Source: an uncultured Acidimicrobiaceae bacterium (GTDB lineage Bacteria > Actinomycetota > Acidimicrobiia > Acidimicrobiales > UBA8190). From it: DNA of 64,000 nucleotides. The notes under the pieces were generated by a model, which worked only from the letters and a program-made list of their open reading frames with translations, made no database searches and was not told the origin of the DNA. The position numbers were made by a program, and so were the translations under genes. The stretch covers positions 176,474-240,473 of the forward strand of contig CAWCZO010000007.1 of NCBI GenBank assembly GCA_963800065.1. Reading direction: 5' to 3'. Shown in pieces: positions 38,329 to 47,596 of the stretch. The first letter of the stretch is position 1, and each line of letters begins with the position of its first letter.

Positions 38329-38397
38329 GCCGCACCTCCAACGTCGCGCGAAAATTGCCCCATGACCAGGGACAATGCTCTGTGTATGACTTCGAGT

Positions 38398-38430
38398 GGA
38401 GAGCCTGAGACTGTATTCAAACCCTCCAAA
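38398..38430. repeat. 33-nt intergenic repeat, copy A (GGAGAGCCTGAGACTGTATTCAAACCCTCCAAA)
   Basis: 30/33 identical to copy B at 40236..40268 in the same orientation. Flanks diverge immediately. Confidence 0.75.
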
Positions 38431-38590
38431 ATCGCTCCCGGAGGGCCGCGAACTCGCCCGTTCCTGACATTCTCCAGGTCATCGGCCTTCAGCGATCGCT
38501 TCCGACCGGGCTCAGGGCCAGGTTGCCGGATTCCTCTTCAAACATTCAGAGGTCGGCAATTCGAACGCCGATTGACGTGTGGCGGGTTGG

Positions 38591-39814
38591 TCAGAGGGAG
38601 TCGTGGGCGTTGGGAATCGAGGTCGTGGTCCAGGCCCCTCCAAGGCACATCTCGTCTGATGACCCGTCACCCCAGGTCACGAAGTGGGGAGGGACCTTGC
38701 GCAAAATTGGCAACTTTTGAGCAAGGGTCGGATCATAGGTGCAGGTGATTTGGAGCTTGTCCCCTGTATGCACGGGGATGGGAGTCTTCAAGTTGTAGGC
38801 CTTTTGGTAATCGAAGTTGTAGTCGGGGACACTGAGAACCGTCCGGGCTTGCGGTGTCCCTGGGTTGAGGACCATCGAGAAGCTGCGGCCGAGCAGGTGC
38901 ATGTGGGCTTGCGCGCGAACGATGTAACCGCTTCTGCGGATAGGCCAGATACACGACGTCGTGTCACCCTCCGGCGGGTTCGAAGGATTGCGCCCGCAGA
39001 ACTGCTCGAGGAGGTTCACCGTCTCGACCGCGCTCGCACCGAAGCGCTGTCCCAGGTTGGCGAGCGATGCTGCCCGGTTGCAAAGCGGTCCGTTCACCCC
39101 GGTTGGACAAGGGATGTCCGGGGGAGCGAGCGCTATGAGGCCTCCAAGCGGCAAGAGTGGTGTCGAGGTCGGCACGGTGTCGAGGGTGAGCGAGTTCTGA
39201 ACCGGCTTGTCACCTACGAGCAGGTTGTAGTGGACCTGCATGATCACAAGACTCCCGGCAGGAAGCTCGATCCCCGTCCCCTTCGGCAGGTCGTCGGCGC
39301 CGTGACCCGGGGCCCACACGCTCAGCCAGTGAAGACCCAAGAAGTCAGCGAGCGACGCCCCGGGCAGCCCCGGTGCCCCGAAGCACGTCCAACCCCTGTT
39401 CCCGGTGTTGGCGTTGTCTTTGAGAGCAGTCGGCGCGAGGGATGGCGGGACCAAGGCCAGGATGGCGTGGTGGTCTTCGCGACTGCCGGGAATGAACTGG
39501 CTGGTGATGATGTAGGAGTCCCGGGTGACGTGAGGGTTGAGCAAGGTGCAGTGGTAGTCGTCGGTGCTTCCCACGTCCGCTTTGGGCGTGTAGGACGGAG
39601 ACACCAGCGTGACCGTGCTCACCTGCCGGGACGCGCGCGGAGGAGATGCTGAGGAGGCGGCCACGGCGGCAGTGAGCACCGCCGCCATGAGGACCAGAGC
39701 GAAGACCCCGGCCGTGACACCTCGCCGAGAAAGCCGCCGCCGAAATCGGGTCCTAGTGGTAGTCGAACCCTGGTCGGGTGGCTCGCGTTCGGACCGTTCG
39801 TCCAGATCCGTCAT
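38591..39814 (-). CDS. Copper type II ascorbate-dependent monooxygenase-like protein (PHM/DBH family), membrane-anchored or Tat-exported
   Basis: ATG 39814. N-terminus RFRRRLSRRGV plus a hydrophobic helix. CuH-like DDYHC..EDHHAIL..MQVHY. CuM-like AHMHLLGRSF..GDKLQITCTYD..SSDEMC. Confidence 0.8.
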   Translation of the reverse strand: MTDLDERSEREPPDQGSTTTRTRFRRRLSRRGVTAGVFALVLMAAVLTAAVAASSASPPRASRQVSTVTLVSPSYTPKADVGSTDDYHCTLLNPHVTRDSYIITSQFIPGSREDHHAILALVPPSLAPTALKDNANTGNRGWTCFGAPGLPGASLADFLGLHWLSVWAPGHGADDLPKGTGIELPAGSLVIMQVHYNLLVGDKPVQNSLTLDTVPTSTPLLPLGGLIALAPPDIPCPTGVNGPLCNRAASLANLGQRFGASAVETVNLLEQFCGRNPSNPPEGDTTSCIWPIRRSGYIVRAQAHMHLLGRSFSMVLNPGTPQARTVLSVPDYNFDYQKAYNLKTPIPVHTGDKLQITCTYDPTLAQKLPILRKVPPHFVTWGDGSSDEMCLGGAWTTTSIPNAHDSL

Positions 39815-40133
39815 TGTTCCCCCGTCCCTGTGCTTGGTCGTTGTCGGGGCTAGAACGCCGCAAATCGTCCCGGGACCTCTCGTTGTGCCCCAACAGGCTA
39901 ACCCGGCGAAGCTCGAACCGTTCGCTGGTCCCCGCAGAAACAGAACGGGCCCACGACAGCCAACGAAGCCGCTGGCTGATCCCCCAGGCGACAGCCACGT
40001 CGACATGGAGGCTGGACTCGGCGCGTGTGTCCATGTGGCCGCGGGACCGAGAGCTTGCTCCGGGCTCTACCGCGGGCACACCAGGCGCGACTGAGGGTCG
40101 GCTCCGCATTCGCCATCAGGCCTGCTGCAACTA

Positions 40134-40152
40134 CTTCGGGGGGGTTTGAAAC
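40134..40152 (+). repeat. Short repeat copy C (CTTCGGGGGGGTTTGAAAC)
   Basis: Shares CTTCGGGGG(GG)TTTGAA with copy D at 46595..46610. It is the inverted partner of the 3' part of copy B (13-bp complementarity with one G-T). Confidence 0.6.
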
Positions 40153-40235
40153 AGGCACATCCTCGAGTCGAGCGATCCGACATGCAATGGGGCGGTTTGC
40201 CTCGGGTCTCCGATGTCTCGCGACATCACAAGGGC

Positions 40236-40268
40236 GGAGAGCCTAAGACAGTTTTCAAACCCTCCAAA
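40236..40268. repeat. 33-nt intergenic repeat, copy B (GGAGAGCCTAAGACAGTTTTCAAACCCTCCAAA)
   Basis: 30/33 identity to copy A. Lies in the 830-bp non-coding gap upstream of the monooxygenase gene. Confidence 0.75.
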
Positions 40269-40575
40269 GAGGATAAAAGACCTGCTCAGCCACTATGCAA
40301 GCGCTCCAGTATGAGCTGGAACCTGTTGCATTTGACCATCCAGGACCCGTCGATCCGAGCGATTCTCACTCCGACGGAATGCAGTGGTCGTCGCCAAACC
40401 TTTGTGCTCGGGTCTGAAGGCCTCAAGGAGCCGGCGAGCGCGCAATCCTTGGCAACGATCTGTCTGAGGGCGTGAGCCTCGTCTACGACCTGCGTCGAGA
40501 CCCGTGAACAGAGGTCTCCATGACCACGGCATAGACCCTGGTCGAACTGGCGGTGAGGTCCAGCGGGTTGGAATT

Positions 40576-40618
40576 GCCAGAAGGCCCGGTCCCGTGTCGA
40601 CGGACCGGGCCTTCTGGC
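40576..40618 (-). terminator. Strong hairpin downstream of the 40646..42181 gene (candidate intrinsic terminator)
   Basis: Perfect 17-bp inverted repeat GCCAGAAGGCCCGGTCC / GGACCGGGCCTTCTGGC with a 9-nt loop, 28 nt past the stop codon. No clear U-tract. Confidence 0.6.
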
Positions 40619-40645
40619 TACGTGGTGAACTTGATGCGATTCTTC

Positions 40646-42181
40646 CTAACAGCCCGTAGCCGACGACACGAACGTAAGTGTCACGTTTGTGCTGTTGTAA
40701 GTCACGTCGTAGCCTGAATGTGTTGCCCCGGGCGTAGGCAGACAGTTTCCAATAACAGGCCCAAAACTCCCGCTCACGCCGCCGGTCGCGTTGAGAATGT
40801 CGAACGTCTCGTTGAGCGTCGGCGTGAAGCCTGCCTGAGTGGTGATGTCCAGGTCACTGCCGTTCAGAGTCGCCGTGCTCGATCCCTGCAGGTTTCCGAA
40901 CGTGGATGAACCGATGGTTGTGGCGAACTGCGTTGATCCGGCCGCGCTCCCGAATGCGACGTAGGGACTGCTGAATGTGTCAGTACCCGTCGACGGGTCC
41001 AACTCGCCTCCAGTGCAACTGGGGACGACATTCAGCGTCGAGGCCGTCCACGGCCCAACGATGGTGCCGGCAACGGACAAAGAGCTGAATGTTTGCCCAT
41101 TGGTATAGAGAGGACCTCGGCCACTGCCGCAATCGACGTAATAGGTTCCGGCGCCGGACGTCGTGACTGTCGAGGCCAAGGTTCGGCTCCCCTGGAATTC
41201 GATGGTGGCGCCGGTGCCGACCGAATAATTGCCCGATTGGCTTGGTGGGCTGGTTGGGCACCCCGAGGCGCTGCACGGCACGTAGAAGCAGCCGTTGGTC
41301 CCCGGGAAGCAACCACTATTCGCCGTTGCGCCAGTCACAGACACCGACCCCTCGTTATCGAAAACGTATCCGGTCTGCCCGAAACCAGCGGAGTGCGACA
41401 GAGACGTGATCGTTCCGTTGGGTTCGTTCACCACCGACGTCGTTGTCCCGTCATAGCCCGCACAAGGTCCCCAAGCCGTCGATCCTGCTACGAATTCCAG
41501 CAATCCCTCGTTTTCAAGGGTTTCGTTAGCCGACGGACCATAAGAAGGGTAGGGGACATAGCCAATACATCCGCCACCGGTCTCCAGGGTGCCCTTGTTC
41601 ACAATGGTGACACCCGCAGTGAGTCCGTACGGTCCATTGTATGACCAGCCTGGCGAAATATTGGCTGTTTGGTGGGCCGGAATCGTGAGAGTTCCAGGGC
41701 CACCGATTCCACCCGCTATTGCGGTCGTCTTCCCTAGGAGCTCGAGTGATCCCGCCGCGTTATGGATCGATAGGGCCTCGTTCCCCTGTTGGTAATTGGT
41801 GATCTCCGATGAAACGGCGCCGACGAGCTCGAGGACACCGGCGGTGCCCGTCTTGTTCTGGAGCCCCGCTTTGTTGGTGAAGTCGAGCCCCAGGATCGTG
41901 CCGCTCGCATCCGTCACGGTGGGAAAGTTCTTGACCTTGAGACAGGCGTAGTCCGTCGGCCCAGGTGCATAACCTTCGGACCAATTGGTCGAAGTAGCCC
42001 AGTCGGTCCCAGTGCCGGTAGGGCCGCCTGTGAAGTTGTCGGTGCACCTGTGCTTCTTGGCGAGTGGCGAGGCCGCATTCTGATGTGTCGCTGCGCTAGC
42101 CCAGGTTGGAATGGCGAGGACGCCGCTAGCGACGATCGCCACGGTCGAAAGCGTTGCAACAAGACGTCTCGAGTTCTTCAT
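40646..42181 (-). CDS. Secreted Gly/Thr/Ser-rich beta-helix-like protein of unknown function
   Basis: ATG 42181 with AAGGAGGAGG upstream. Signal peptide MKNSRRLVATLSTVAIVASGVLAIPTWASA. The N-terminal W..STNWS.GY.P.P.D.A motif is typical of beta-helical passenger-like proteins. Low GC. Confidence 0.65.
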   Translation of the reverse strand: MKNSRRLVATLSTVAIVASGVLAIPTWASAATHQNAASPLAKKHRCTDNFTGGPTGTGTDWATSTNWSEGYAPGPTDYACLKVKNFPTVTDASGTILGLDFTNKAGLQNKTGTAGVLELVGAVSSEITNYQQGNEALSIHNAAGSLELLGKTTAIAGGIGGPGTLTIPAHQTANISPGWSYNGPYGLTAGVTIVNKGTLETGGGCIGYVPYPSYGPSANETLENEGLLEFVAGSTAWGPCAGYDGTTTSVVNEPNGTITSLSHSAGFGQTGYVFDNEGSVSVTGATANSGCFPGTNGCFYVPCSASGCPTSPPSQSGNYSVGTGATIEFQGSRTLASTVTTSGAGTYYVDCGSGRGPLYTNGQTFSSLSVAGTIVGPWTASTLNVVPSCTGGELDPSTGTDTFSSPYVAFGSAAGSTQFATTIGSSTFGNLQGSSTATLNGSDLDITTQAGFTPTLNETFDILNATGGVSGSFGPVIGNCLPTPGATHSGYDVTYNSTNVTLTFVSSATGC

Positions 42182-42193
42182 TGTCGTCCTCCT

Positions 42194-42285
42194 CCTTGAA
42201 GGTGGATCACGGTTGGGATCCTCTCGGAGTGTGTCGGGCATCCCCTGAAGGGCCCTTGAAAGGACCTTGAAGCTGCCTCCAAGCT
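42194..42285. promoter_or_regulatory. Array of CCTTGAAG-like direct repeats in the divergent promoter region
   Basis: CCTTGAAGG at 42194, CCTGAAGG at 42244, CCTTGAAAGG at 42254, CCTTGAAG at 42265 and CCTCCAAG at 42277. The last four are spaced 10-12 nt apart, about one helical turn. Confidence 0.3.
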
Positions 42286-42374
42286 GGGAATGGGACCGGA
42301 TGGGCGCCTTGCCGGGTCGGGGCCGGGCCGAGGGTTGTCAGGGCCTCAGCATTCGAGATTGGGCAGCTCAGGGG

Positions 42375-42380
42375 TATAAT
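42375..42380 (+). promoter_or_regulatory. Perfect TATAAT -10 hexamer upstream of the SARP-family regulator gene
   Basis: GGGGTATAATCTGG ends 14 nt before ATG 42395. This implies a very short leader. The -35 is weak (TTCGAG at 17-nt spacing). Confidence 0.4.
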
Positions 42381-42394
42381 CTGGGCCCTCTCGT

Positions 42395-45300
42395 ATGATG
42401 GGGGGAGCGGTGGAGTTCAAGATCCTCGGGCCGCTCGTCGTCCGCAGCGAAGCGGGCGAGGTGAAGGTGGCAGGCTTCCGGCGCCGAGCCCTTCTGGTGC
42501 GTCTGTTGACCGTCCCCAACCAGCTGGTCGCCGCCCCACGCCTGGCCGAGGACCTGTGGGAGGGCGAGCCGCCCACCAGCTGGGTGTCGACCCTTCAGAG
42601 CCACGTGTCGCTTCTGCGTCGGGTGCTTGGCCCGGGCCGGATCGAAGGCCGGGACGGTGGTTACTTGATCAACGCTGCAGATGACGAAATCGACAGCCGT
42701 CTGTTCGAGATCGAGAGCGGCCAGGGTCGCCATGCCCTCGAGGGGGGCGATCCCCGGAAAGCAGCCGGCCTCCTGCGTCAGGCACTGGATCGCTTCAACG
42801 GCCCAGCCCTGGTGGATGTGTCCGAAGCAGCCTGGGCCCTCTCCGAGGCATCCCGGCTTGAAGAGCTCCGCCTGAACACCCTCGAGCTGTGGCTCGACGC
42901 CCGTTTGGCCCTGGGCGAACACAACGAAGTGGTGGCCGCCGCCCAGGCAGCGGTGGCCGAGCATCAGCTCCGCGAGCGGTTGTGGGGTCAGCTGATCCTG
43001 GCCTTGTATCGCTCAGGCCGTCAGGCCGACGCTCTGCGCGCCTACCAGCGGCTCCGGACCACTTTGGGCGACGAACTCGGTATCGAGCCATCGGCTGAAT
43101 TGGTCGCTCTCGAACAGGCCGTGATCCTGCAACGGCCCGAAATGGACTGGAGAGAACGCACCGGTTCGTCTCCTCGCTCGCCATTCGCTGCGCAGACACC
43201 GAGTACGTTCGGCGAGGGCCCGGTGGTGCCGATGCCGGCACGGCTCTTGACGGGTCCGGAATACGGATTCGTCGGGCGAGCCGTCGGGGTGGTCGGCAGA
43301 GAGACCGAGCTTACCGAGATGACTGAGGCGACGAAACGCGTCTCAGGAGGTGGGGGACGGGAGATCCTGCTCATCTCGGGCGAGGCCGGTCTGGGTAAGA
43401 CCACCCTCCTGGCCGAGGCGGCACGAGCGGCGTTCGACAATGGAGTCTGTGTCTTGTTCGGACACTGCGAGGAGGACCTTGCCACTCCCTACCAACTCTT
43501 CGCCGAGGCCCTCGGACACTTCGTCACACATGCCACGGATGAACAATTGTCTGCCCACATAGCGGCTCACGGGTCGGAGCTGTCCCGGCTCGTTCCAGGA
43601 CTCGCCAACCGGATCCGGGACCTTCCGCCATCCAAGGCCACCGACGCCGACACCGAGCGCTACCTCCTTTTCGAGGCGATCGTCGGACTCTTCTCCATGC
43701 TCTCGGCCCAGCTGCCAGTCGTTCTCGTACTCGACGATCTGCAGTGGGCGGACAAGGGAAGCCTCCACCTTCTACGCCATCTGGTCGCGGCAGAGCAACA
43801 AACGCGAGTGCTCGTTCTCGGGGCTTACCGCGACACCGAACTATCTCGGACTCATCCCCTCCTCGAGACCCTCGGGGCGCTACGCCGACAACAAGGCGTC
43901 AGCCGGATCGAGCTGACAGGGCTGGATGACACCGGGGTGATTTCATTTATGGAGGCCGCCGCTGGTCAGACGCTTGACGCCGATGGCGTCGATCTCGCCC
44001 ATGCCGTTCACCGTGAAACCGACGGGAACCCGTTCTTCCTCAGTGAGGTGCTCCGCCATCTTGTCGAGACAGGGGCAATCTATCGGGACACAGCCGGACA
44101 GTGGGTAAGGGACGACAGCCTCGAATCACTGGGCCTACCTGCCGGCGTACGCGAAGTAATCGGTGCCAGGGTCGGGCGGCTCGGGGCGAGTTCCGAGCGG
44201 GTCTTGTCGTTTGCGGCGGTCATAGGCCGGGACTTCGACTTCGAAGTACTGGCCGAGGCCACCGAGACTCGGGAGGACGAGCTTCTCGAGGTGCTCGACG
44301 CTGCTCGATCGGCGGCCCTAGTGCGCGAAATGCGGGATGCTCCGGGGCATTACAGCTTCGCCCACGCACTGATTCAACACACGCTGTATGAGGACCTCGG
44401 TCCCACTCGCCAGGCAAGGGTGCATCGGAGGGTTGCCGAAGCGTTGGAGGATCTCAGTCAGGGACGACCTGGGCGGCGAGTCGGTGAGCTAGCGCGCCAT
44501 TGGTTCAAAGCAACTCAACCCAAGGATTTGGCCAAGGCCATCGAATATTCTCGGCAGGCGGCCGACGCCGCTCTCGCCGCGCTTGCCCCGGGCGAAGCCC
44601 TTCGCTATTACTCTCAGGCCCTCGACCTCTTCGCTGAGGCCGATGACTCCGAGCCTCTCCTGGACATCGACCTCCGCATCGGTCTCGGAACCGCCCAACG
44701 TCAGTCGGGAGACCCGGCTTACCGCGAGACCCTGCTCGAAGCGGCCGGGCGCGCCGCCCGTCTCGACGACACAGAACGGCTGATTGCCTCGGTTCTGGCC
44801 AATGACCGGGGATTCTTCAGCGCTCTCGGAGCCATCGACAGTGAAAAAGTCGCGATCTTGGAGACGACGCTCGATCGCCTCTCCGCTAGCCACCCGGCCC
44901 GGGCCCTTGTACTCGCCAACCTGAGCAAGGAGCTTGCTGTCGGGACCGCACTCGAACGTCGCCGTACTCTGGCTGAAGAGGCGGTCGCCCTCGCAGAGAT
45001 GTCGGGGAACGACGCCACGATCGTGCGGGTTCTGAACCATGTGGCCGTTCCACTCCTCGTGCCCCCTATGCTTGAGCAATCGCTGACCAGGTCGACCGAG
45101 GCCCTGGCGCGAGCAGAACGCCTGGGCGACCCAGCCCTCATGTTCTGGGCGGCAACCGTGCGTCGCATTGTTGCTGCTTGTGACCAAGACGTCGACGAAT
45201 TGGATCGATGTTTTGAGATCGCCGGGTCCCAGGCCGAACAACTGAACCAGCCGACGCTGAACTGGGTGCAAACCTTCGGGCGAGCCTCACGAGCCCTCGT

Positions 45301-46018
45301 GGCCGGGGACCCCGACGGAGCCGAACAGCTTGCAACTGAGGCCCTCCAGATCGGAACGAATGGCGGCGAGCCCGACGTCGCTACCGTATTCGGACCTCAG
45401 CTCATTGGTGTGCACTTTGAACGCGGGACCTTGGGAGACTTCATTGCCATCATCGAGCAGAACGTTGCGGAGTTCCCCGGGGTTCCCGCCTTCGTAGCAG
45501 CGCTGGCACTCGCTCACGTCGAAGCTGATGACCCCGATGCCGCTCGTCCGCTGTTGGAAGAGTTCGAATGCAAGGGATTCGAAATTCCGATTGACATCGT
45601 CTGGCTCACTGCGATGGCTCTCTATGCGGAAGCCGCCATCGAGTGCGGCGATCCGGCATTCGCTCGGCCGATGCTCGAACGCCTTGCTCCTTGGGAGGAC
45701 CGGTTGATATATGACGCCGGAACTTCCGCTGGTCCCGTGAGTCATTACCTCGGGGGCCTGGCCGCGGTCCTCGGCAGGAGCGACGAAGCAGAGAGGTTCT
45801 TCGAGCAGTCCTCCAACTTCTCCGAGAGGGTTGGCGCCAAGTGGTTCGCCGCCCGGACCGAACTCTCGTGGGGGAGGATGCTCGCCGAGCGCCGGGGTCC
45901 CGGCGACGCCGAGAATGCTCGGAACCTTCTCAACAAGGCGCACAGCGCCGCAGCCACTCACGGGTACCGCACCGTTGAGCGCCGCGCTTTGTCGACTCTT
46001 CGATCGCTGGACGCTTAA
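42395..46018 (+). CDS. AfsR/SARP-family regulator (OmpR-type wHTH, BTAD, P-loop NTPase and TPR-like repeats)
   Basis: VEFKILGPLVV..RRRALLVRLL (wHTH), BTAD segment ..LRAYQRLRTTLGDELGIEPSAEL.., Walker A GEAGLGKTT, Walker B VLVLDDLQWAD, and a long helical C-terminus. Alternative start GTG 42410. Confidence 0.85.
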   Translation: MMGGAVEFKILGPLVVRSEAGEVKVAGFRRRALLVRLLTVPNQLVAAPRLAEDLWEGEPPTSWVSTLQSHVSLLRRVLGPGRIEGRDGGYLINAADDEIDSRLFEIESGQGRHALEGGDPRKAAGLLRQALDRFNGPALVDVSEAAWALSEASRLEELRLNTLELWLDARLALGEHNEVVAAAQAAVAEHQLRERLWGQLILALYRSGRQADALRAYQRLRTTLGDELGIEPSAELVALEQAVILQRPEMDWRERTGSSPRSPFAAQTPSTFGEGPVVPMPARLLTGPEYGFVGRAVGVVGRETELTEMTEATKRVSGGGGREILLISGEAGLGKTTLLAEAARAAFDNGVCVLFGHCEEDLATPYQLFAEALGHFVTHATDEQLSAHIAAHGSELSRLVPGLANRIRDLPPSKATDADTERYLLFEAIVGLFSMLSAQLPVVLVLDDLQWADKGSLHLLRHLVAAEQQTRVLVLGAYRDTELSRTHPLLETLGALRRQQGVSRIELTGLDDTGVISFMEAAAGQTLDADGVDLAHAVHRETDGNPFFLSEVLRHLVETGAIYRDTAGQWVRDDSLESLGLPAGVREVIGARVGRLGASSERVLSFAAVIGRDFDFEVLAEATETREDELLEVLDAARSAALVREMRDAPGHYSFAHALIQHTLYEDLGPTRQARVHRRVAEALEDLSQGRPGRRVGELARHWFKATQPKDLAKAIEYSRQAADAALAALAPGEALRYYSQALDLFAEADDSEPLLDIDLRIGLGTAQRQSGDPAYRETLLEAAGRAARLDDTERLIASVLANDRGFFSALGAIDSEKVAILETTLDRLSASHPARALVLANLSKELAVGTALERRRTLAEEAVALAEMSGNDATIVRVLNHVAVPLLVPPMLEQSLTRSTEALARAERLGDPALMFWAATVRRIVAACDQDVDELDRCFEIAGSQAEQLNQPTLNWVQTFGRASRALVAGDPDGAEQLATEALQIGTNGGEPDVATVFGPQLIGVHFERGTLGDFIAIIEQNVAEFPGVPAFVAALALAHVEADDPDAARPLLEEFECKGFEIPIDIVWLTAMALYAEAAIECGDPAFARPMLERLAPWEDRLIYDAGTSAGPVSHYLGGLAAVLGRSDEAERFFEQSSNFSERVGAKWFAARTELSWGRMLAERRGPGDAENARNLLNKAHSAAATHGYRTVERRALSTLRSLDA

Positions 46019-46594
46019 CGAGCGACCCAGGTTCGCTAACCAACGATCGGAAAGCCGCACCTTCAGCGCATCACTATTCATTGGAGGCCGAAAGCGGGAT
46101 CCGGGACTCGCTCGACGTCCTTCAAGAAAACGCATAGTCAAGCGCATGAAGGCATTTGAATATGGGTCACGCTTGCCGCCGCTGCGGCGCCCATCTCAGG
46201 GCGGACCATTAGTCAGCTGGGGATCCCATCCTGGCCTGGATGTGGTCCTCCTTCTCAGGCCTACTCGATGGCACGATTCCCGCTTAGGCGCGCAGCGGGA
46301 ACGCCCCAGAAGGCGTCGACGGAAGCATTGGAGAGTGGAATGAATAGACCCGAGCACGGGGTTCGTCGCCTACGTGACGGTCAGCCAATCTCGTCGCTTC
46401 GCTTCGGTCACGCCTTCGCTTCGCAGCCAGGCTCGGTTTGGACCAAACCGGGACCCGACGTGCGGGACCCAAACCCCAGGACCTCAGATGAATGACCTGG
46501 TCGCAGACAAGAGCGTCTCGCCCTTCGCTCAAACCGGCCAACTGAAGGCGATGCGCCAGTCGGCGCACCAGAAGCTGTATCTGGCGGTACAAAC

Positions 46595-46610
46595 CTTCGG
46601 GGGTTTGAAT
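46595..46610 (+). repeat. Short repeat copy D (CTTCGGGGGTTTGAAT)
   Basis: Matches copy C and the reverse complement of the 3' part of copies A and B (GGAGGGTTTGAA). Lies 80 nt from tRNA-Ser(CGA). Confidence 0.55.
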
Positions 46611-46689
46611 AAGCATCATCCGATGGTCGACCGATCCCACACCCACATAACCCGTTGATCAGGGGTGACGACCGCTGTTTAAGCATAAG

Positions 46690-46776
46690 CGGAGGAGGTG
46701 GGATTCGAACCCACGGTGGCCTTGCGACCACAACGGTTTTCGAGACCGTCCGATTCGTCCGCTCTCGCACTCCTCC
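46690..46776 (-). tRNA. tRNA-Ser (anticodon CGA)
   Basis: Reverse complement reads GGAGGAG..ACGGT-CTCGAAA-ACCGT..long variable arm..GTGGGTTCGAATCCCAC-CTCCTCC-G. Acceptor, anticodon and T arms all pair. No encoded CCA. Confidence 0.9.
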
Positions 46777-47470: not shown

Positions 47471-47596
47471 GGTGCTCCGTGCGGCGGCCGGGTCCTGCGC
47501 AACGGGCACCCGTGAACCGAGTCAGGGCCGGAAGGCAGCAGCTCTCAGCGGCGCCGTCCGTGTGCCGTAGCAAACCTGGCCGTCGCACCGAACACC
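47471..47596 (+). ncRNA. ffs: Signal recognition particle RNA (small bacterial SRP / 4.5S-type)
   Basis: GUCAGGGCCGGAAGGCAGCAGC matches the domain IV consensus (E. coli GUCAGGUCCGGAAGGAAGCAGC) with a compensatory change. 5' GUGCGGCGGCCGGGU pairs with 3' ACCUGGCCGUCGCAC. Sits in the classic position upstream of dnaX. Ends are +/-10 nt. Confidence 0.75.

Follow-up and report, generated by a model that had tools for sequence, protein, structure and literature searches.

How does a gene-poor block of low GC content come to stand at the end of a tRNA gene with no integrase beside it? This question is raised by positions 38329-46689 of a stretch of 64,000 nucleotides from an uncultured Acidimicrobiaceae bacterium (the window; contig C7:176474-240473). 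The block encodes a copper monooxygenase, a secreted protein without a recognized family (the ORFan) and a SARP-family regulator, and it ends at tRNA-Ser(CGA). The first-pass annotation had described it as a horizontally acquired island at a tRNA locus that was either old and decayed or had arrived by another route. This description is supported by the atypical composition of the block, by the variable content of the same place in relatives and by the presence of the ORFan and SARP genes elsewhere in a metagenome relative; acquisition of the block as accessory DNA is very likely. Both halves of the proposed alternative hold. The block as a whole is probably what remains of elements that large serine recombinases (LSRs) integrated site-specifically at the tRNA-Ser(CGA) 3' end, and repeats in its gaps would be attR-type halves of the attachment (att) sites of these elements. 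It is a real feature of an ordinary kind, a fossil island.

The source genome is a metagenome-assembled genome (MAG) of 4.44 Mb in 11 contigs, with 68.9% GC, 90% completeness and 3% contamination. The nearest relatives in public data are soil MAGs from long reads, which carry the label uncultured Acidimicrobiaceae or Acidimicrobiales. In the following, G000 is the source genome, other G numbers are relatives, L numbers are loci or metagenome contigs, and C numbers are contigs.

Composition and contents of the block

The GC content of the block is 62.56%, compared with 68.7% in the 10 kb to its left, 72.0% in the 10 kb to its right and the genome value given above. This corresponds to a z of -2.2 and to the lowest 3.5% of 4358 genome windows of the same size. 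The counts that had been made by hand on 60-nt lines were exact (46.7, 55 and 60% inside the block; 75, 71.7 and 68.3% outside), and the computed GC, tetranucleotide and codon-usage analyses agree that the block is atypical, with a codon signal that is local. Tetranucleotide usage places the block in the top 2.2% of genome windows by L1 distance. After normalization for GC, it correlates with genome usage at 0.74, which ranks among the lowest 0.55% of windows, so the composition signal grows once GC is factored out. The GC content at third codon positions (GC3) is 0.77, 0.68 and 0.72 in the monooxygenase, ORFan and SARP genes and 0.87-0.89 in the genes of the left flank. G000 holds about 32 low-GC regions of this kind, of which the block is one.

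The gene content is as first annotated: Pfam families were found for the monooxygenase and the regulator, and the third product is secreted and without a family. The three long non-coding gaps measure 262, 831 and 670 bp, and tRNA-Ser(CGA) lies 670 bp past the SARP stop codon, at 46689-46776 on the minus strand. To the right of the block follows a conserved core cluster composed of tRNA-Ser(CGA), a deaminase-like open reading frame (ORF), tRNA-Ser(GGA), the signal recognition particle (SRP) RNA at 47486-47584 and then dnaX.

Repeats in the gaps and the attachment site of large serine recombinases

The repeat family noticed earlier in the gaps is real and local. It has two types. D5 occurs at 40236-40268 and, as D5', at 38398-38430 (91% identical), and D3 occurs at 40139-40182 and, as D3', at 46599-46641 (74% identical). 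Both types have the inverted core GG[AG]GGGTTTGAA in common, which is present in five copies in 4.4 Mb, four of them in the block. Read on the tRNA strand, the order is tRNA, D3', SARP/ORFan, D5, D3, monooxygenase and D5', and both cargo sets open with a D3-type and close with a D5-type sequence. Both D5 cores lie on the tRNA strand, at 6.4 and 8.3 kb from tRNA-Ser(CGA). The strict D3 box has three matches in G000, namely the two in the block and one chance-like match at C9:4398. A tyrosine-integrase element contains the fifth GGGGGTTTGAA copy (C3:399217), which was judged a coincidence; the sequence around it looks coding.

Several other identities of the repeats were considered and rejected. 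A genome-wide repeat or a miniature inverted-repeat transposable element does not fit motifs that are confined to this locus in G000. Rfam detected only the two tRNAs and the SRP RNA, and ARAGORN reported no tRNA or tmRNA pseudogene at the D5 sites even with lowered thresholds. Judged by eye, the inverted pair at 40139-40268 has core sites unlike the RYYYAAC/GTTRRRY of integron attC, and the substitutions in the repeats lack the codon pattern of a small coding gene.

The D5 cores resemble the 3' end of tRNA-Ser. Unsupervised MAFFT alignment of tRNA-Ser 3' ends with D5 cores opened a single gap of 5 nt, giving GGGTTCGAA-----TCCCAC.TCCTCCGC against GGGTTTGAATACAGTCCCATGCTCTCCGC, and the sequence upstream of the D5' core (the P arm) is reminiscent of tRNA-Ser(GCT) in its variable and T arms. 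The 24-nt 3' end of the adjacent tRNA, searched with up to three mismatches, was found only in two tRNA genes, with no displaced copy in the window. A direct search fails because the D5 cores are diverged look-alikes and not copies of the neighbouring tRNA. The earlier statement that no tRNA-derived direct repeat exists therefore stands for copies of the adjacent tRNA and falls for diverged tRNA-Ser-like ends.

The same core marks island ends elsewhere in the family. The 27-nt D5 core (GGGTTTGAAWACWGTCYYAKGCTCTCC) is nearly invariant and occurs in 18 of 57 family genomes, with one or two copies in each, and a reversed control gave no match. In G060, 40 kb separate it from the upstream tRNA-Ser(TGA) gene, which has the same strand, and the core closes a low-GC island where GC falls at the tRNA and recovers past the core. 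The distance downstream of tRNA-Ser(TGA) is 14 kb in G058, where the final 12 nt of this tRNA come after the core. In G005 the core coincides with a GC step from 55-66% to 70-78%. A 2.6-kb cassette extends from tRNA-Ser(TGA) to a D5 core in G054. In G052, the stretch found next to the tRNA in G054 stands behind a D5 core instead, which makes a tandem junction like the one at window 40139-40268. No integrase was found in the small D5-bounded cassettes of G054, G052 and G060 or in the islands of G058 and G005; their cargo includes TetR, metallo-beta-lactamase-fold, SRPBCC, Shedu and UvrD-like helicase genes. No D5 core was found in IMG/VR viral contigs. The G060 island (L129/L135/L136; C2:280-320 kb) carries a Shedu (SduA) gene, and a separate 3.5-kb cassette between two D5 cores carries the UvrD-like helicase gene; with this cargo the island looks like a defence island.

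Some of these islands carry an LSR gene at the other end, next to the tRNA. The 40-kb island of G060 opens with one (Resolvase domain, 732-aa open frame), which directly adjoins the 3' end of tRNA-Ser(TGA). A homologue with 51.5% identity in G001, a member of the same genus, has Resolvase, Recombinase and zinc-ribbon domains and lies against tRNA-Ser(CGA), beside a Replic_Relax gene. All five LSRs with at least 50% mutual identity abut tRNA-Ser (TGA in G060, G011 and G005; CGA in G001 and G068); LSRs of less closely related clades stand beside tRNA-Val, tRNA-Ala or tRNA-Arg. The five junctions read tRNA...CTCCGCCA, about 10 nt and then (T/G)(A/T)TTCAAACCCAG, which is the inverted copy of the D5 motif GGGTTTGAA(T/A)A. 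The TTCAAACCC motif thus stands about 10 nt past the tRNA end in 5/5 cases; T[AT]TTCAAACCC is exact in four, and G005 has TGATTCAAACCC. D5 cores were found in four of the five genomes with such an LSR and in 14 of the other 52 (one-sided Fisher p = 0.03), a value that is indicative only as the genomes are related.

Joining a D5 core to the P' arm of these junctions predicts an attP of about 51 bp, GGGTTTGAAAACAGTCTTAGGCTCTCCGCCAGATAGTCCTTATTCAAACCC, with inverted ends of 10-12 bp (GGGTTTGAAWA - 29 nt - TWTTCAAACCC) and a centre in CTCC/GC, which is also present in the tRNA. When 241 million metagenome records were searched for this arrangement, with 8-22 nt between a D5 core and TWTTCAAACCC, one contig was returned, L165, which reads GGAGGGTTTGAAAACAGTCTTAGGCTCTCCGCCAGATAGTCCTTATTCAAACCCAGG and is crossed by an LSR C-terminus. 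The P side of its attP equals the G011 D5 core (attR), and its P' side equals the G011 attL. The D5 cores of the window match the P half of this attP as well as the cores at the island ends of G060 and G058. L165, an unrelated contig, is the only place where an intact attP was seen. LSR frames that cross the attachment site were observed at L165:1648-1989, at L136:11740-13935 (G060) and at L011:8819-10771 (G001). The last residues (..GLGLNKDYLAE..) are encoded by the P' arm, and the frame continues into the D5 core in attP or into the tRNA antisense in attL, so that integration changes the C-terminus of the protein.

The proposed mechanism is that the tRNA-Ser 3' end would serve as the attB-type target of this LSR clade. 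The left half of attP would mimic the T-loop and acceptor end of tRNA-Ser, with an outer motif displaced outwards by 5 bp relative to the tRNA; after integration, this half would remain as the D5 core at the distal island end. In the structural model of serine integrases, the attB motif for the zinc-ribbon domain is placed 5 bp nearer to the centre than its attP counterpart (PMC3783163), which agrees with the 5 nt by which the D5 core and the tRNA end differ. The LI/A118, Bxb1 and phiC31 phage integrases described there likewise have an attP of about 50 bp, inverted outer motifs and the 5-bp attB shift, and they yield hybrid attL and attR products without long direct repeats; their targets, in contrast, are protein-coding genes or intergenic sites, and no phage genes were seen here. 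These findings suggest that the D5 cores are likely to be LSR attR-type half-sites. The products of serine integrases are hybrid sites that lack long direct repeats, which would explain why the block does not show the usual signature of an island. Serine integrases have been stated not to be known to target tRNA genes (PMC4383910), and a limited literature search found no paper describing an LSR clade at tRNA genes. A wider reading comes out a little better than even. It combines an Acidimicrobiales radiation of LSRs that use tRNA 3' ends as attB, one tRNA per clade (tRNA-Ser for the clade with at least 50% identity; tRNA-Val, -Ala or -Arg for the distant ones), an attP mimic of the tRNA-Ser clade shifted by 5 bp as used to tell attP from attB, the swap of the C-terminus, and the block as a fossil of two units.

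The absence of an integrase or transposase, reported at first from inspection, held under sensitive searches that included the gaps. A six-frame search with PF00589, the model of tyrosine integrases, gave no match on contig C7, Pfam searches of all three gaps in six frames gave no protein remnant, and tblastn with the LSRs of relatives gave no LSR or remnant in the window. tRNA genes are textbook targets of islands, for those with tyrosine integrases. A classical island of this type at the tRNA 3' end, with an integrase decayed beyond recognition, would account for a block of low GC beside a tRNA with tRNA-like repeats, and tyrosine integrases do adjoin tRNA-Ser in G001, G003 and contig C3 of G000. 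These integrases, however, lie on the 5' side of the tRNA, opposite to the block, and the C3 element is bounded by a copy of a 5' half. The silence of PF00589, the missing copy of the adjacent 3' end and the association of the D5 core with LSR genes and an LSR-type attP in relatives also argue against this origin, which is considered quite unlikely. Among the traits of tRNA islands detected by Islander (PMC4383910), the block has the intact tRNA at its end and lacks both the displaced near-identical 3' fragment and a tyrosine integrase or its remnant. It resembles these islands in starting at a tRNA and in having a tRNA-like fragment at the far end, and it differs in that this fragment would be an attP half-site with a 5-nt insert and in the lack of a tyrosine integrase.

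The C3 element itself is 13.9 kb long (C3:397265-411300) and has its tyrosine integrase gene (C3:410054-411052) beside the 5' side of tRNA-Ser(GCT). The copy that bounds it is an exact 41-nt match to the 5' half of this tRNA, which indicates that the element integrated there. The tyrosine integrases of G001 and G003 hold the same position beside tRNA-Ser(CGA).

The locus in relatives and the order of units

The DNA 3' of tRNA-Ser(CGA) differs among relatives. G016 retains the left-flank genes, the TIG repeat protein and the monooxygenase, with homology up to window 40265, the inner edge of the D5 core. Beyond this point it has a different 3.6 kb encoding an 868-aa secreted ORFan, followed by the identical tRNA and right flank; the segment swapped between the two genomes is bounded on one side by the tRNA end and on the other by this edge of the D5 core. 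Their D5 cores differ at five positions, which fits the expectation that each incoming unit brought its own P half-site. G013 is without the TIG gene and has the monooxygenase, and ahead of the tRNA it encodes another paralogue of this enzyme, an Ig/TIG protein and a pair of ECF sigma and anti-sigma factors. In G003, the homologue of window ~31.4 kb is followed directly by a sigma/anti-sigma pair and the tRNA; orthology of this pair with that of G013 was rejected at 29% identity. The left region (31.4-38.3 kb) is variable as well, with host-like GC and no att scars. This varied content indicates a long-standing hotspot that reaches left past the block. An identity step between G000 and G016 at the D5' boundary was not clear-cut and was not used as evidence.

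The ORFan and SARP pair is missing at the syntenic loci of G016 and G013, and no copy was present among the matches listed in 40 relatives. The first-pass annotation had proposed comparison with relatives as a check on whether the block is absent there; absence was found for this pair and not for the monooxygenase, which is present in both G016 and G013. The 670-bp stretch between the SARP gene and the tRNA (46019-46688) has no homologue in 56 family genomes. The pair occurs again as a module (window 40572-45988), at 90% nucleotide identity and with the genes still together, on the 7.3-kb metagenome contig L014. There it spans from the ORFan terminator hairpin to 30 nt before the SARP stop, and its flank matches contig C10 of G000 at 92%, that is, another locus.

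These comparisons bear on the possibility that the block was inherited vertically, with low GC caused by weak expression or fast evolution, or that it is a chimera of assembly or binning. The GC3 of the cargo is inside the broad genome-wide range, and the genome is a MAG with the completeness and contamination given above. Both flanks and the monooxygenase are, however, syntenic with G016 and G013 on single contigs, which shows that the join is not chimeric. The restricted occurrence of the ORFan and SARP pair and of the third gap, together with tetranucleotide usage among the most atypical 0.5%, further argues against this explanation, which is highly improbable.

Integration by LSRs would have proceeded in two steps, with an LSR family active in this Acidimicrobiaceae lineage as the source of the elements. 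Two D5 cores in the orientation of the tRNA suggest two stacked units. Unit A (38398-40235), with the copper monooxygenase, would be the older one, as it is common to G016 and G013. Unit B (40236-46688), with the SARP regulator and the secreted ORFan, would be the younger one; it stands next to the tRNA, has the lowest GC and is absent at the locus in relatives. Genes closer to the tRNA are common to fewer relatives and have lower GC3. The two units have attR-type sites at their far ends, and the attL-type sites are atypical. With the LSR gene and the tRNA-side P' half-site gone, the island would no longer be able to excise, and the tRNA-side junction also indicates that it is probably immobile and fixed.

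Several observations weigh against the integration model. No LSR gene or detectable remnant is present in the window, and G000 is without any close LSR. On the tRNA side, the P'-like TTCAAACCC motif lies ~80 nt from the tRNA end, and unrelated sequence is found at 10-22 nt, where the motif would have to stand for the junction to be a canonical attL. This odd layout, in which the motif follows a TGTSGGATCGSTCGAC box, recurs at the inner junction (at the pseudo-tRNA end) and in G016, which shows the D3' layout of G000. No tRNA remnant follows the D5' core, and no available relative combines an empty site with the same flank to prove the B' half. The module on L014 has no D5 or D3 motif nearby, so the ORFan and SARP cargo can also move by other means. 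The GC3 values of the three cargo genes reach only the 36th, 11th and 19th percentiles genome-wide (in a rough ORF set with a broad GC3 spread), which makes the codon signal local and not extreme. Finally, a standard LSR should not re-use an attL, and the standard model does not account for the entry of a second unit at such a site, although tandem arrays of the staphylococcal cassette chromosome (SCC) show that it can happen with other LSRs.

Some of these points would also be expected if ordinary homologous recombination, deletion or insertion sequence (IS) activity had built the locus, with D5 and D3 as leftovers and the cargo arriving independently. The L014 module, the relic of an IS end at the inner junction, the non-canonical attL and the variable region at 31.4-38.3 kb with its host-like GC and no att scars are all in line with such a history. 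It would not, however, lead one to expect that the limits of the swap between G000 and G016 coincide exactly with the tRNA end and the inner D5 edge, or that both units have the same end architecture. Age and GC order also track distance from the tRNA, as accretion predicts. This alternative is regarded as unlikely, and integration by LSRs is preferred.

The process by which such an island would form is known. Composite islands are made in staphylococci by the Ccr LSRs at the 3' end of rlmH (orfX), as SCC and psi-SCC elements. The block is like these in that an LSR would target the 3' end of a conserved gene, in the tandem arrays with repeated att sites and in members without a recombinase; it is unlike them in its tRNA target, its actinobacterial host, the single LSR in place of a ccrAB pair and an attP that appears to mimic the 3' half of the tRNA. 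Stacks of recombinase-less units at one att site are also known as cis-mobilizable elements (CIMEs), which form by tandem accretion as in the ICESt1/ICESt3 model (PMC5704250). The block resembles CIMEs in its recombinase-less units, in their putative att-type bounds, in what would be successive stacking at one target by site-specific integration and in the proposed position of the newest unit next to the target gene. In contrast, the described cases mostly involve tyrosine integrases and CIMEs keep attL and attR, whereas an LSR is implicated here and the tRNA-side site is non-canonical, which makes mobilization of the units in cis doubtful. The process would be accretion of the CIME or psi-SCC kind, and the pair of enzyme and target is less familiar and moderately unusual.

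Integration by LSRs would explain the origin of the regulator and secreted-protein pair and of one copy of an expanded copper monooxygenase family, as well as the absence of an integrase. It also offers a sequence rule for island ends in uncultured soil actinobacteria, a 27-nt core that mimics the end of tRNA-Ser with a 5-nt insert. Methods that seek tRNA fragments together with a tyrosine integrase miss such islands. If the link between LSR and tRNA is true, the enzyme would be a compact recombinase with a natural, conserved and predictable target, the tRNA 3' end, and would be of interest to those who map mobile elements and to those who collect integrases as tools.

Features and cargo of the block

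Table 1. Positions of the features of the block and its anchor in the window
Feature	Position	Strand	Remark	Basis
D5' core with P arm, putative distal attR-type scar closing the island	38398..38498	-	homologous to P side of L165 attP	
PHM/DBH-like copper monooxygenase, 407 aa	38591..39814	-	cargo of proposed unit A	Pfam Cu2_monoox_C
D3 repeat, tRNA-proximal end of proposed unit A	40139..40182	-	layout as D3'; conserved in G016	
Solo end of an IS481-like insertion sequence, variant of other genera, TGTGATGTCGCGAGACATCGGAGAC	40205..40232	-	abuts pseudo-tRNA end	
D5 core, putative attR-type P half-site closing unit B, GGAGGGTTTGAAAACTGTCTTAGGCTCTCCGCC	40233..40268	-	tRNA-Ser 3'-end look-alike with 5-nt insert	
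Perfect 17-bp hairpin, terminator-like end of ORFan gene	40576..40618	-	inverted repeat; edge of module common to L014	
Secreted Gly/Thr/Ser-rich ORFan	40646..42241	-	cargo of proposed unit B	signal peptide, no Pfam family
Phased CCTTGAA(A/G)G direct repeats, divergent promoter region	42244..42285	.	candidate SARP operator upstream of ORFan	
SARP-family STAND regulator, BTAD + AAA_16 + TPR, 1207 aa	42395..46018	+	cargo of proposed unit B	Pfam
Gene-free 670-bp stretch, SARP stop to tRNA 3' end	46019..46688	.	not canonical attL; five real attL sites compared	
D3' repeat, TGTGGGATCGGTCGAC...TTATTCAAACCCCC	46599..46641	-	P'-like TTCAAACCC motif ~80 nt from tRNA end	
tRNA-Ser(CGA)	46689..46776	-	anchor; 3' end (46689) faces island	ARAGORN, Rfam

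The monooxygenase matches Cu2_monoox_C over its C-terminal domain (E 3.9e-9; 36.6 bits against a Pfam cut-off of 23), and a PDB sequence search gave no match. Its orthologues at the same locus are 92% identical in G016 (tblastn; also 92% at nucleotide level in the genome scan) and 83% identical in G013 (tblastn; 90% in the best segment of the genome scan). Five paralogues in G000 and 217 relatives in Acidimicrobiales MAGs indicate that this family is typical of the lineage and not foreign. Upstream of the gene, 133 nt (window 39953-40085) are missing from G016, which has 6 nt instead, and both sides are 81-92% identical.

SARP regulators combine BTAD with a DNA-binding domain of OmpR type at the N-terminus, and their large members also have an ATPase and TPR. 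Membership of the regulator in the SARP family is based on BTAD (E 1.9e-42) and AAA_16 (E 3.8e-29), and the Trans_reg_C and TPR matches are weak. Further large SARP/STAND paralogues are encoded in G000 at C10:5251-8868 and C3:121.7-129.5 kb, with 62% identity in BTAD and 48% in the ATPase-TPR part. The C10 paralogue lies ~5 kb from the gene that flanks the ORFan and SARP module in the metagenome relative.

The ORFan had no Pfam match, and a word-seeded search of 5.8 billion proteins, in which 8000 candidates were scored, found only two homologue clusters. The beta-helix label given to it at first was not confirmed, as the AlphaFold model has a mean pLDDT (predicted local distance difference test) of 34 and is unreliable and too poor for a fold search. 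Homologue lengths and the ribosome-binding site GGAGGAGGA suggest 42181 as the likely start. The SARP and ORFan genes are divergently oriented, and three to four CCTTGAA(A/G)G repeats with ~11-nt spacing lie 63-104 nt upstream of this inferred start. In L014, 41 of the 42 nt of the repeat region are kept and the adjacent intergenic DNA varies. This pattern fits a SARP operator that would probably drive the secreted ORFan.

Over 25-31 nt, the solo IS end at the inner junction is 93-100% identical to IS ends of many relatives, in which this IS481-like variant also inserts at tRNA 3' ends and abuts them. G000 itself has five IS481-like copies of ~1.3 kb, 97.7-100% identical to one another, which encode a helix-turn-helix and rve transposase with one frame change. 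They are located at C2:163.3-164.6, C3:13.8-15.2, C3:362.7-364.1, C7:151.7-153.0 (outside the window) and C8:604.6-605.9 kb. The copies follow the 3' ends of five different tRNAs (Pro, Leu, Ser(TGA), Arg and Val) at 0-3 nt; beyond the copy at tRNA-Leu, 13 nt of the acceptor end appear again.

In the same gap, 35 nt at window 40494-40528 match four places in G017 (89%) and single places in G061 and G021, and are probably a piece of another repeated element. In the right flank, long ORFs overlap in several frames at window 47.5-51 kb and none is dominant in GC3, which may reflect indel errors of long reads.

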